A DNA stretch of 64,000 nucleotides from Kiritimatiellia bacterium (GCA_045617985.1 JAZLJP010000041.1:1922-65921), one strand, 5' to 3'; positions 10,659 to 17,630 are shown, counted from the stretch's first letter. Made by a program: numbers and translations. The notes: generated from the sequence alone by a model not told the origin.

Positions 10659-10741
10659 GAGGCTCGCGCGGCTTCGGAGCCGTCAGCCGAACGTACCTCA
10701 CGCGGAGGGCGTACGCTTGCCCCCGAAGCCGCACGAGCCTC
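10659..10741. repeat. Imperfect inverted repeat (19-bp arms, 18/19 match, 45-nt loop) at the left junction of the low-GC island
   Basis: GAGGCTCGCGCGGCTTCGG (10659-10677) pairs with CCGAAGCCGCACGAGCCTC (10723-10741). The right arm abuts the first base of the segment shared with paralog D. The stop codon of truncated paralog A lies in the loop. Confidence 0.6.
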
Positions 10742-11225
10742 GGTCACCGCATGATCGATCATTGCAGAATTTCCGAAAGATGTCAACATCGATTGGGAAC
10801 GAATAGGGGTCGCGCGGGGGAACATATCGGCAGTCGAGCAGACACGCCTTCTCATCCAGAAGCTTTCGCAGAACAATGCGAAAGGGATTGGATTCAGAAT
10901 GTTCTTGCGGCGTGGCACATTCGGTCCGATTGGGATTTAGATAGTCCTCATATCTGTACCCTTTCTTGCCTGCGGCCTCAACATGACGGTCTTCATCTTC
11001 TTCAACTGGGGCGACAATCCTCCCGTTCTCCGTTGCCTGGAACCATTTCTCGTGAGGGACGGGATACGGGCTGCCGTCAGGCAAGTCCCACCACTTCAAT
11101 TTCACAAATGCACCGGGAACAGGATGCCCTTCCTGATCAGTGACCAGGAAGTGAACTGATCCGCCAAACAATTCTCCAAGGGACAGATAGGACAAACAAA
11201 CGACAATCATCTCTTTCAGTTTCAT
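10698..11225 (-). pseudogene. Truncated member (A, 175 aa) of the island paralog family. It keeps only the N-terminal third and ends in unrelated GC-rich sequence.
   Basis: MKLKEMIVVCLSYLSLGELFGGSVHFLVTDQEGHPVPGAFV... aligns with paralog D up to ...FCNDRSCGDR, then diverges (GSCGFGGKRTPSA*). GAGGAG precedes ATG 11225. The conserved TTN..G.IATTNRV and HRYPPRPD regions are missing. Confidence 0.6.
10741..10893. repeat. 153-bp segment about 97% identical to 14808..14960 (paralog A versus paralog D)
   Basis: Direct comparison of the two stretches shows only about 4 substitutions. The encoded peptide NPFRIVLRKLLDEKACLLDCRYVPPRDPYSFPIDVDIFRKFCNDRSCGDR is identical in both. Confidence 0.85.
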
Positions 11226-11370
11226 ACAAACTCCTCTTTCAGACATGACGACGTAGAAGTCTACCTTCGTATTTTGCATTGCGACATTTCCGTTCAGCAG
11301 GGAAGGACGAGTCAGAAACAGTCCTCTATGCCCAAACGCCTCCATCCCCGAACCCGTGAATCATACCACT

Positions 11371-12558
11371 CTATTCTGGAAGAGAAAGCGTATGAGCCTC
11401 ATTACACAATCGATCAAGCTCCAACGCCTTGTCGCGATAGAGAGAATGGGATGAATCAAGTTCCTTTTGATAAGGAGCAGTTGCACGCACAACCTCCTCC
11501 TTGGTCGCTTGAGGATGCGACTTGCGAAACTCTTCGATCTTCATGTTCAATTCATACCGGCGGACATGCCATTTCGAAATCTCATCCTCCAATATTCGGC
11601 GCCTTTCCAAGTTAGCGGCTCTTGCCTTCAGATCCGGATGGCGAGGATAAATGCGATCCAGCAATAACGAACGCCAGGCTTCCTGCGTCAAATCCCGAGC
11701 ACATTCACTTCCGATTTTCTCAATCCGGTCATCATATTCGAATTCCCTTCGACCATAGGGATTCAAAATCGAACGTGGAATGGAAATATGGAAACGCGGA
11801 TCTGACGGTTTAGTCCGCACAACGCCACTCTCGTTATCGAACGGCAGCATCATGAACACCTGGGGGGTCCGTGTGCGGAGATATAGCGTGAAGGACGAAT
11901 TGGTGTAGACCTCCTGCGAGACTTCGACATGTTTCACGTACCCTTTGTCTGGAGCGACAAACACCCGATTGGTCGTGGCAATAATACCAGAACATTCATT
12001 GGTCGTCCAGAATGCCACAGTCCAACAATTCGACTCGGCGTGAAAAGATGGGCAAACATGGAAATCCCGATACCCATCACCCTTTGAATCGTACGCTTCC
12101 CTTGATTCGGCATACATATCGACAGTGATCGGTTCGCACTTCCCACCATCGCAATAATAGGGATTACTATAATTGCAAACAAGGCAGAAGGAACGAGCCG
12201 GCTCTTTCTTTCGCAGGACAATCCGATAGGGGTTATCCTGCGGAGCTCGACTGGGGATCAGCACCTTGTTTCTGCCAGGATTCAAATATCTTTCATACAC
12301 ATAACCATCCTTTTTCGCATCGAGAATCTCAACCCATCGCTTTAACGACATATTCGTATCGGCACGACCATCGCGAGCAGATTTCAAAGTTTCCCTTTTA
12401 GGAGGCAAGAGACTTCCTGAAAAGTTTTTTTCGTAGTAACCAATACTGATTTCACAATCTTCGACAGGAACACCAAATTGGTCCACGACCATCAAATTAA
12501 CCGTAGGGCGAGAGAGAAGAAGCCACGGCATCAACAACAGAAGGACACACGATTTCAT
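11371..12558 (-). CDS. Secreted island paralog B (395 aa), unrecognised family
   Basis: Signal peptide MKSCVLLLLMPWLLLS. The family motifs are all present: NPYRIVLRK, TTNECSGIIATTNRVFVAP..GY, FTLYLRTRTPQ, NPYGRREFEYDD and RIYPRHPD. The C-terminal charged heptad-like tail ends in HTLSLPE. GGGAGGTG precedes the ATG. Confidence 0.8.
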   Translation of the reverse strand: MKSCVLLLLMPWLLLSRPTVNLMVVDQFGVPVEDCEISIGYYEKNFSGSLLPPKRETLKSARDGRADTNMSLKRWVEILDAKKDGYVYERYLNPGRNKVLIPSRAPQDNPYRIVLRKKEPARSFCLVCNYSNPYYCDGGKCEPITVDMYAESREAYDSKGDGYRDFHVCPSFHAESNCWTVAFWTTNECSGIIATTNRVFVAPDKGYVKHVEVSQEVYTNSSFTLYLRTRTPQVFMMLPFDNESGVVRTKPSDPRFHISIPRSILNPYGRREFEYDDRIEKIGSECARDLTQEAWRSLLLDRIYPRHPDLKARAANLERRRILEDEISKWHVRRYELNMKIEEFRKSHPQATKEEVVRATAPYQKELDSSHSLYRDKALELDRLCNEAHTLSLPE

Positions 12559-12591
12559 TATTCACCTCCCTGGAAACAAACCGGGGACTCA

Positions 12592-15852: not shown

Positions 15853-16248
15853 CTTGATCTTATTCCATGAACGGCCCCCAAATCCTGCAATTTTTTTCAA
15901 GGGTTCTTCAAACGACAGTTGAATCCGTGGAGGACAGTCCCCACGGCAACGTCGAGGCGATGAACGCCGAAATGTTTTCCAGATGTCTGCCATGGCAATC
16001 CGCCACCTCCTTTGAACCAACCGCGCCGACCACACAACCATTTTACCAAAGACGCCCCCGCCGGTAAAGCCAAAACTCCGACTAGGAAACAATCGGCCAG
16101 CAAGCGGGGGACGCATCCGCTGCCACGGGCTTCACGCAGGAGGAGTGGAGACGAGGGGAAGAGATTGAAGAGTCGCTTCGAATCGCACGGGGGCCGACCT
16201 CGTGGGCCACTTGAGGATTCGCACGGGGACAGACCCCAGCATCAGGGA

Positions 16249-16289
16249 CGAAGATTTCGGCTCGCAACCATTCCGCACCGAAATCTTCG
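16249..16289. repeat. Perfect 12-bp stem / 17-nt loop hairpin in the 533-nt spacer between paralog E and the orphan fragment
   Basis: CGAAGATTTCGG (16249-16260) pairs with CCGAAATCTTCG (16278-16289). It is flanked by GGGGACAGACCCC (16225-16237) and GGGACTGTCCCCC (16292-16304). Confidence 0.7.
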
Positions 16290-16385
16290 CAGGGACTGTC
16301 CCCCGTGGATTATGCAGAACACGCCGAAACTCGCTTCGCGGGACGCGGAAAACCCGCTCGAAGGAATGTCCACGCGAAATCGTCA

Positions 16386-17630
16386 TCACTCATCGTTTGG
16401 TTGGACAACATTGGGCGGTTTGGAGACCGGCACTTCCGGCAGGATCAATGTCGGGGCCTCTTCTTCCAATCGCATCAATTCCTTTTTGAGTGCTACAGCC
16501 TTGTCCCCGTAGAACTTTTCTTTCACGGCAAGTTCCGCCATTTTTTTCTCGTCTTCCTTCGACGGATGCTCGCTGCCATACTTCAATTCCGAGATCTGGT
16601 TGCAATACTGTTGGGCGATATGGGAATTATCCCGATACATTTCCTCAAGTTTCTCCCGCCGCTCACAGTTCGCTTCGAATCGGACGACATCTGGACGAGG
16701 CGGATAGCGGTGGTCCTCGGCTAAGGACTTGAGAAATCGCTCCTGAATTTCGTAGTAATGCCTCTCAACGAGACGCGTCAAACGAATTTGTTCAAATGTA
16801 CGTCCCCCGAACGGGTTCACTCGGTAACGTCTGCAGGCGAACTCGCAACACGCCGAATTTTCACATCCCTTCGCCACCAAATCGCCTACGCCGAATTCAA
16901 ACATCACAAAGATTTGAGGCTCATGCATCTTCAAATACAGCGTGAACGACCGAGCCAGATACTCATCCTGTTCAACTCGAATTCTCTTTTTATACCCCGT
17001 TGCCGGCGCATAGAAAACGCGATTCGTCGAAGCGATGATGCCCGTCGTTTCATTCGTCGTCCATAAATCGAAGTGCCACTTCCTCGTCCGTGCGTCGAAA
17101 TGGGGTTCAAGAAAGAAATCATCCCTTGCGCTTCGTGTGGAATTTCCACCGAAAACACTAATCGGAAAGGTCTTCTTTTCACCCTCTTTCATAGAATATC
17201 GATAATGCGGATACAATCCAAGCAGATGTTCTTTCTCTTCAAGAGCTCTTCGCATGACAATCTTATAAGGCGTTTCGGGAGTATTGGGCAGCCATTGAAG
17301 AAGAACGTTAAGGTAAGAATTAAGTCGTCGTTCAAAGAAGAACCCCGGCGCGATCACATTCCTGATGTTTTGCGAACGGTGTTCCGAGAGATCAAGGGCA
17401 AAACGCCCCTCCTTGTCACTCGTTGGCTGTTCCCTGACAACACGCCCTGTCTCGCGCCCTTTATACCATCCCCCATGACCGCTCCACCAGGTAATCATGA
17501 CCTTCGCACCCGGCACGGGAACACCTTCTTGATCGACAACAAGAAAGTGCGCGGCAGGACCATCGTCGGCCAACAAATTCAATGAAAGCATTGCAATAAT
17601 CAACAGTTTAAACTTCATAAACCACCTCAT
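16386..17630 (-). CDS. Secreted island paralog E (414 aa), immediately downstream of and overlapping the giant gene
   Basis: Its ATG 17630 shares one base with the giant gene TAA (TAATG). An alternative ATG at 17618 (MKFKLLIIAMLSLNLLA) follows GAGGTGG. The family motifs are present: HFLVVDQEGVPVPGAKV, TTNETTGIIASTNRVFYAP..GY and HRYPPRPD. It ends ...KPPNVVQPNDE. Confidence 0.8.
   Translation of the reverse strand: MRWFMKFKLLIIAMLSLNLLADDGPAAHFLVVDQEGVPVPGAKVMITWWSGHGGWYKGRETGRVVREQPTSDKEGRFALDLSEHRSQNIRNVIAPGFFFERRLNSYLNVLLQWLPNTPETPYKIVMRRALEEKEHLLGLYPHYRYSMKEGEKKTFPISVFGGNSTRSARDDFFLEPHFDARTRKWHFDLWTTNETTGIIASTNRVFYAPATGYKKRIRVEQDEYLARSFTLYLKMHEPQIFVMFEFGVGDLVAKGCENSACCEFACRRYRVNPFGGRTFEQIRLTRLVERHYYEIQERFLKSLAEDHRYPPRPDVVRFEANCERREKLEEMYRDNSHIAQQYCNQISELKYGSEHPSKEDEKKMAELAVKEKFYGDKAVALKKELMRLEEEAPTLILPEVPVSKPPNVVQPNDE

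Follow-up and report, generated by a model that had tools for sequence, protein, structure and literature searches.

A 64,000-nucleotide stretch of DNA from a Kiritimatiellia bacterium (GCA_045617985.1, JAZLJP010000041.1:1922-65921) contains a locus that we read as a candidate polymorphic toxin system, in which a gene for a giant protein is followed by a tandem family of genes for proteins of about 400 amino acids. The whole stretch is referred to here as the window, coordinates are positions in it unless a related locus (designated L001, L002 and so on) is named, and the toxin/immunity genes all lie on its minus strand. On that strand, the order from 5' to 3' is the giant open reading frame (ORF), paralog E, an ORF of 276 codons, and paralogs D, C, B and A. 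A first-pass annotation of the window had recorded the five paralogs of this interval, and these stand; missing from its list was the ORF at 15286-16116, between E and D, which carries a fragment of a toxin tip. The features of the locus are as follows.

17630..25114, minus strand: likely extent of the gene for the giant, a putative exported toxin (OCRE and TSP3 Pfam matches, signal-peptide-like N-terminus).
19100..19885, minus strand: conserved pre-toxin module of the giant (coverage by the tip profile in L012, L026, L030 and L031).
17633..19084, minus strand: C-terminal toxin domain, a predicted alpha/beta-hydrolase (motifs, homologs).
16386..17630, minus strand: paralog E, 414 amino acids, presumed cognate immunity gene (ORF, alignment, profile).
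16317..16367, minus strand: conserved intergenic element of about 50 nucleotides (comparison with related loci).
15286..16116, minus strand: ORF of 276 codons with an orphan toxin-tip fragment (homology spans 15334-15921).
14063..15283, minus strand: paralog D, 406 amino acids, presumed immunity gene of the orphan tip (ORF, alignment, profile).
12592..13854, minus strand: paralog C, 420 amino acids, putative orphan immunity gene (ORF; no toxin remnant upstream).
11371..12558, minus strand: paralog B, 395 amino acids, putative orphan immunity gene (ORF, profile).
10698..11225 (open frame 10698-11345), minus strand: paralog A, truncated 175-amino-acid remnant of a D-variant gene (similarity to D).

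The ATG of E overlaps the TAA stop codon of the giant ORF by one base (TAATG), and a second candidate ATG lies 12 nucleotides downstream. Similarly, D begins 2 nucleotides past the stop codon of the orphan-tip ORF, with a GGAGG sequence 9 nucleotides before its ATG. Scans for promoters and terminators returned no signal beyond chance between the genes of the locus, and Rfam had zero matches in 9-27 kb of the window. The G+C content is 43-55% across the locus (window 10000-26000) versus 60-67% in the flanks, which suggests horizontal acquisition.

Paralogs E, D, C and B, at 395-420 amino acids, align from end to end with 29-34% identity and 59 invariant columns; the proposed tandem family of four full-length members and a truncated A is confirmed. 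All of the shared motifs that had been listed fall within the invariant columns, which take in VxD..G.PV, NP..(I/F)V(L/M)R(K/R), TTN..G(I/L)IA(T/S)TNRV..AP..GY, FTLY, NP.G.R..E, (H)RYP..PD and TL.L. The similarity is far beyond chance, as each window paralog scores E<1e-74 against the family profile. A hydrophobic N-terminal segment of the signal-peptide type, recognized by a Kyte-Doolittle heuristic and not by SignalP, is present in all five window genes, as had been claimed, and in 101 of 112 family members.

The N-terminal segment of about 90 amino acids had been likened to CarboxypepD_reg, and the likeness holds at fold level. Paralog E matches that family in Pfam at an E-value of 0.027, which is below the curated cut-off, and PF13620 matches 43 of the 112 relatives, with a best value of 1.2e-7. 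In addition, a Foldseek search with an AlphaFold2 (AF2) model of D (built from 7 sequences; predicted local distance difference test, pLDDT, 74) aligned the N-terminal beta-sandwich with 3e8v, 9hfj and 8bdw at probabilities of 0.99-1.0; these neighbours are beta-sandwiches of the transthyretin/CnaB/SusC-NTE type. The CarboxypepD_reg/transthyretin-like assignment of the window N-termini is therefore best stated as valid at the level of the modelled fold, not by Pfam threshold. One distant family member also has a weak match (E=0.009), confined to the N-terminal domain, to TIGR04134, “radical SAM-associated putative lipoprotein”.

Beyond this domain, the window paralogs had no match in Pfam, NCBIfam or the Protein Data Bank (PDB). 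Profile searches of PDB sequences with the partner family retrieved the N-terminal domain only, and Foldseek against the PDB with the model of D gave no significant neighbour for the core. Thus, the profile and structural searches advised in the first-pass annotation placed the N-terminal domain and left the core, whose internal motif is the most conserved part of the family, without a significant match; the description of the proteins as an unrecognised type is upheld, and literature searches found no description of the partner family. The model of D predicts a beta-rich core followed by a confident C-terminal helical hairpin (residues 307-386), in which the charged tail noted earlier forms two long helices, 307-345 and 351-386, with a pLDDT of about 90. 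The NVVQPNDE ending shared by D and E corresponds to a 69-nucleotide repeat (14044-14112 and 16364-16432) that is 88% identical between the two genes.

Paralog A is indeed truncated, being alignable to the N-terminal third of the family only. Its extent, however, had to be corrected: the likely start is at 11225 (MKLKEM...), not 11345, which yields a product of 175 amino acids. The N-terminal part is about 81% identical to P0154, a D-variant of another strain; the next 156 nucleotides (10740-10895) share 97% identity with 14807-14962 in D, and the similarity then breaks off. A is therefore a decayed, chimeric remnant. For B, no close ortholog was found.

The giant ORF as listed occupies 17630-25279 and has a TTG start; its likely start is Met56 at 25114 (MRIVSRGSVSAVGAALVVLISILAVASEE), where the sequence is signal-peptide-like. 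The resulting protein has about 2,500 amino acids and a Sec-type signal. Its Pfam content consists of OCRE-like aromatic repeats (E=8e-44) and then TSP3_bac (E=4e-22). The N-terminal third (about 22900-24900, minus strand) is made up of YYD-rich aromatic repeats, nine stretches of which match the eukaryotic OCRE domain and which are also visible as DNA repeats of 220-250 nucleotides; bacterial TSP3 calcium-binding repeats come next. A module with the motifs FWVNDD.D, NCDDD.IG and RDLEDF.RLH stands ahead of the hydrolase tip in all homologous toxins, whatever their stalk. This pre-toxin module has no match in Pfam or any family searched, and it is a candidate for a role in release or translocation.

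The tip comprises the last ~430 amino acids of the giant. Wherever the respective region is present in homologous tips, Ser is invariant in HS(Q/M)GN, Asp in N..D(Y/W/F)AL and two His residues in H(Y/K).HS.EFRS. The counterparts in the window, in ORF numbering, are Ser2240 (THSQGN, nucleotides 18560-18562), Asp2369 (NRQDYAL) and His2520/His2523 (HYDHSHEFRS); the Ser-Asp-His order and the nucleophile elbow of DUF900-type hydrolases are thereby present. DUF900 (PF05990) exceeds its 20.5-bit cut-off in two homologs (P0170, 26.2 bits; the L012 tip, 27.6 bits) and lies below it, at 13-19 bits, in seven other homologous tips, which occasionally also have weak matches to Abhydrolase_6, Abhydrolase_8 or Lipase. 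Judging from these motifs and homologs, the tip is an alpha/beta-hydrolase distantly related to DUF900, and the array does lie downstream of a toxin-like gene, as originally stated. A DUF900-type hydrolase, the secreted archaeal protein cinquedea, has been reported as a bactericidal phospholipase (bioRxiv 10.64898/2026.06.10.730825), and this report makes a lipolytic, envelope-damaging activity of the tip plausible by analogy.

Over its last ~190 codons (15334-15921), the orphan-tip ORF resembles the very C-terminal end of the giant with 35% identity (E=2e-33); to the L003 tip, the fragment is 50% identical. It keeps the Asp and His regions and is devoid of the half that bears the nucleophilic Ser. 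A tblastn search with five homologous tips located tip sequences at exactly two places in the 64 kb, 17633-19084 and 15334-15921, with none upstream of C, B or A.

To place this arrangement in context, the loci of close and distant family members were recovered, and their six-frame ORFs were scored with the family profile and a tip profile. About 33 cases from Kiritimatiellia, Phycisphaerae and environmental metagenomes had enough upstream sequence to be informative. The family gene adjoins a hydrolase-tip ORF in approximately 18 of these, follows another paralog in about 7 and is solitary in about 8. In L003, L006, L009, L010, L012, L014, L015/16 and L020, the start of the family gene coincides with the end of the tip ORF or lies a few bases from it; the same holds for L022, L023, L024, L027, L030 and L031, and for L026, which has more than one such case. 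A start/stop overlap or a gap of a few nucleotides is found in the window and in at least 12 other loci. As L010 belongs to Phycisphaerae, tip adjacency reaches another phylum, and it extends to family identities of only about 20%. The stalks of the adjoining toxins differ: OCRE and TSP3 in the window, RCC1/He_PIG/TSP3 in L006, transglutaminase and Big_1 in L031, and PKD in L012. Units of a tip fragment plus a family gene recur in L005, L015, L023 and L033, and several toxin and family genes alternate in L026. The latter, a 37-kb metagenome contig, also has an IS200-like (Y1_Tnp) transposase-type gene at 12274-13281, within the alternating array.

Individual gene types change position between strains. 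An E-type gene that is 92% identical to window E is an orphan in L009, where a different toxin, with a tip of 49% identity, and that toxin's partner P0016 precede it, and an E-type gene is likewise an orphan in L002. Conversely, a C-type gene (82% identical), which has an orphan position in the window, sits directly behind a full toxin tip in L003, and L005 has a different array with a D-variant at its head. A given type can thus adjoin a toxin in one strain and be orphaned in another, which agrees with the suggestion that orphan immunity genes are present. Orphan position or not, E, C and D have ratios of nonsynonymous to synonymous substitution (dN/dS) of 0.21-0.25 relative to their orthologs; values of about 0.2 indicate that the orthologs are under purifying selection. 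For 10 tip/partner pairs, the identity matrices of tips and partners are correlated (Pearson r=0.79, Mantel p=2e-4), and the partners diverge faster than the tips (e.g., 29% versus 49% identity). In addition, an element of about 50 nucleotides, with the consensus GGGATTCCTTCGAACGGATTTTCCGCGTCCCGCGAAGCGGGTTTCGG..., is 88-93% conserved at the cassette boundaries of related loci. Copies are located at window 16317-16367 (minus strand), L002 594-644, L005 1460-1510 and 3691-3734, and L009 5712-5762; in the window it is 3' of E, in L005 it comes after D- and F-type genes, and elsewhere it precedes the E-type genes. Its folding is no better than that of shuffled sequence; a recombination junction and a regulatory site are possible roles.

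The family is large. An exhaustive HMMER profile search of 1.84 billion representatives, with clustering at 50% identity, retrieved 1,206 representative clusters at E<=1e-3, 392 at E<=1e-10 and 79 at E<=1e-30. Most are 340-400 amino acids long and span the N-terminal domain and core; the coiled-coil tail is limited to the ~25 closest clusters. The named sources are Kiritimatiellia metagenome-assembled genomes and one of Phycisphaerae, and the rest are varied environmental metagenomes. The notion that the family is “extremely rare” was considered and rejected: a word-indexed search gave 4 hits with the paralog profile and 15 with the 112-member profile, so rarity judged by such a search alone is badly wrong for a fast-diverging family.

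We propose that the interval is probably the part of a polymorphic toxin locus that provides immunity, through one cognate gene and several orphan ones. This reading is supported at the level of comparative genomics by gene order, homology, co-divergence, cassette shuffling and selection, and each prediction of the immunity array suggested in the first-pass annotation that could be tested on sequences was borne out. The toxicity of the tip, its substrate, the compartment, the binding between the partners and the route of the giant to target cells are what we infer in the following scheme. The Sec-exported giant would carry a C-terminal serine alpha/beta-hydrolase of the DUF900 neighbourhood, which may damage the cell envelope through phospholipase or esterase activity. 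Because the toxin and its partners all bear Sec signals, the periplasm is the sensible site of neutralisation; there, E would meet the toxin and neutralise it by binding, protecting the producer both during export and against toxin delivered by siblings. D and the tip fragment before it would represent a cassette displaced by recombination, C and B would be orphan immunity genes kept for protection against the different tips of neighbouring strains, and A would be a decayed copy. The predicted layout of the partners is a transthyretin-like beta-sandwich, a beta-rich core with the family motifs and, in the window's clade only, a helical hairpin tail. Speculatively, the motifs TTN..GIIATTNRV..AP..GY and NP.GGR.FE could lie against the conserved catalytic side of the hydrolase, and the fast-diverging remainder could set specificity.

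Several observations weigh against this proposal. The last 480-600 residues of the giant, which include the tip, give no Pfam match; a profile search of PDB sequences with the tip had no matches; and the AF2 model of the tip is unusable at a pLDDT of 37, a confidence at which it predicts a strand-Ser-helix arrangement. For want of a Pfam match and a good model, the hydrolase assignment of the window tip rests on motifs and homologs. No member of a dedicated secretion system was found among the part of the window ORFs that was scanned against Pfam. Correlated divergence is expected for any two co-inherited neighbours. The giants of L009 and L003 and P0169 are 25-70% identical over their whole length with no clear break, and no close allele was recovered; consequently, the classic pattern of a constant stalk and a variable tip is not demonstrable with the homologs at hand. 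Further, the size of the paralogs (~400 amino acids) is large for an immunity protein, and the strong conservation of their motifs is unusual for one. Finally, about a quarter of the family genes with enough upstream sequence are solitary. Examples are L001 3756-4859, whose neighbours are FeoB and a B12-binding radical-SAM gene; L035 1748-2884, beside a leucine-rich-repeat protein; L032 496-1665, beside a methyltransferase-like gene; and members in L021 and L034. Such a fraction is usual for orphan immunity genes, and with approximately three quarters in arrays, homologs are not commonly found away from toxin genes, the circumstance that the first-pass annotation had regarded as damaging to its own suggestion.

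The main rival to immunity is a helper function, in which the paralogs would be dedicated periplasmic folding, activation or export factors, one per tip variant, comparable to lipase foldases or secretion adaptors. The tight one-to-one adjacency and the co-divergence with the tip are equally expected of a tip-specific chaperone or activator, and export signals on both partners suit such a role. A helper, however, is useless in the absence of its enzyme. C, B and the E-type copies of L009 and L002 have nonetheless been retained in loci that lack a matching tip; the E-type and C-type orphans are under purifying selection, and solitary copies exist. Divergent-copy arrays with decayed tip fragments are a signature of immunity, not of foldases, and the paralogs have no Pfam match to lipase chaperone families. 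We therefore consider an exclusively helping role unlikely. The two roles need not exclude each other, as at least one lipase immunity protein of a type VI secretion system (T6SS) is reported to be required to activate its effector (bioRxiv 10.1101/2023.03.28.534661).

Slightly less probable still is the idea that the paralogs are variable adhesins, substrate binders or decoys, secreted or at the cell surface, and accompany an esterase of nutritional or host-directed function, the array then providing substrate or antigenic variation. Signal peptides and Ig-like/transthyretin-like N-terminal domains are common in surface proteins, fast divergence and a coiled-coil tail are in keeping with them, and the toxicity of the tip is putative. 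This idea leaves unexplained both the start/stop coupling to a hydrolase ORF across phyla and unrelated stalks and the truncated tip fragments beside the copies; moreover, the most conserved part of the proteins is the internal core motif, not a variable exposed region. That E alone matters and D, C, B and A are decaying, functionless duplicates is very improbable: A is clearly truncated and chimeric, and above-chance promoter or terminator signals are missing between the genes, but D, C and B are full-length ORFs with all of the family motifs, D and C have a dN/dS of about 0.2 relative to orthologs of other strains, and the C type is toxin-adjacent elsewhere. These last two readings fit worse than that of immunity.

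If the immunity reading is true, it names a large unannotated family (at least 1,206 clusters at 50% identity, for which Pfam and NCBIfam hold no model) that is paired with a specific toxin domain. It would also mean that Kiritimatiellia and Planctomycetes, whose means of competition have been almost unknown so far, use the cassette-swapping logic of contact-dependent inhibition (CDI), Rhs and T6SS systems on Sec-exported giants. Specificity could be tested with components of this single locus, namely one tip (predicted catalytic residue Ser2240), a cognate partner and three partners that are not cognate; the pre-toxin module offers a clue to the route of delivery. A wider proposal, which we advance tentatively and regard as a real possibility that leans toward doubtful, is that the family provides immunity within a hitherto undescribed system of antagonism between bacteria of the Planctomycetes-Verrucomicrobia-Chlamydiae (PVC) group (Kiritimatiellota, Planctomycetota and relatives). 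Sec-exported giants at the cell surface, with interchangeable stalks, would bring a DUF900-like lipolytic tip, which the pre-toxin module precedes, into the envelope of neighbours independently of type V, type VI or type VII secretion, and the ~1,200 clusters would be among the larger unannotated superfamilies of periplasmic immunity proteins. The system is of interest mainly because the unannotated family is large, the phyla are little studied and the giant carriers are T6SS-independent.

Elsewhere in the window, three further very large ORFs are found on the minus strand, none of them matched by the toxin-tip or immunity profiles: 56762-62155 (1,797 amino acids; N-terminal GDSL lipase domain and Big_5), 45579-50258 (1,559 amino acids; Laminin_G_3 and F5/8 type C) and 50338-54162 (1,274 amino acids; no Pfam match). 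A gene with a Fic-like C-terminal domain lies at 62336-63406 (minus strand), and a two-module AAA+ ATPase (AAA and AAA_lid_6) is encoded at 5986-8139 (minus strand) beside a DUF6930 protein; no link of either to the toxin locus was found.

Among known systems, the T6SS lipase effectors Tle1-5 and their periplasmic immunity proteins Tli1-5, reportedly described by Russell et al. in 2013, are a close functional parallel to the proposed one. Periplasmic Tli proteins protect against Tle lipases, and tli genes often occur in several tandem copies. As in the window, a GxSxG-type serine hydrolase that presumably damages the envelope from its periplasmic face has a signal-peptide partner encoded directly downstream. 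The window differs in that no T6SS genes, VgrG/PAAR/Hcp or adaptors were present among the scanned ORFs, and in that its toxin, borne at the tip of a repeat protein of ~2,500 amino acids, comes with a Sec signal of its own. Further, the tip and partners match no Tle or Tli family of Pfam, the partners match no Tli family of NCBIfam, and the hydrolase is nearest to DUF900, not to DUF2235, DUF3274 or PLD.

Lif foldases are also encoded downstream of secreted lipases, and they are helical and single-copy. They resemble the window partners in being periplasm-facing products of a gene directly 3' of a secreted serine hydrolase gene. The window partners, in contrast, have no Pfam match to them, are predicted to be beta-rich with a C-terminal helical hairpin, are arrayed, and occur without a matching enzyme.

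In organization, the locus is reminiscent of the orphan cassettes of toxin C-terminus and immunity gene of CdiA and Rhs toxins that Poole et al. are said to have described in 2011. In both, a full toxin and its cognate immunity gene are followed by N-terminally truncated tip fragments, each with an immunity gene; lone immunity genes occur as well, and cassette content varies by strain. The window giant, however, is devoid of the filamentous haemagglutinin (FHA)/two-partner secretion (TPS), RHS/YD and VENN/PxxxxDPxGL features of those toxins and has a stalk of OCRE-like and TSP3 repeats. The sharp junction between constant and variable parts is not seen among its homologs, and its partners are exported proteins of ~400 amino acids, whereas CdiA and Rhs immunity proteins are small and cytoplasmic.

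Within the general framework of polymorphic toxins (Zhang et al. 2012; PMC3482391), two hydrolase toxin families invite comparison: Tox-ABhydrolase-2, with HSxG, D and H motifs, pairs with SUKH, and Tox-ABhydrolase-3 pairs with Imm66/69 (PMC3482391). The window tip was compared with both by published description. Imm-SUKH, Imm66 and Imm69 are unrelated to the present family, as Pfam scans of the window paralogs and of the 112 members gave none of these, nor any other immunity-type family. The DUF900 family of cinquedea is the nearest profile to the toxin tip, and cinquedea is a secreted hydrolase reported to kill bacteria; the window tip, however, falls below any threshold for DUF900, and cinquedea is not the tip of a giant protein but a single-gene unit whose genomic context is reported to be uninformative (bioRxiv 10.64898/2026.06.10.730825). 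We class the tip and its partner as a new pair of predicted toxin and immunity families, belonging to a kind of system that is already well known.

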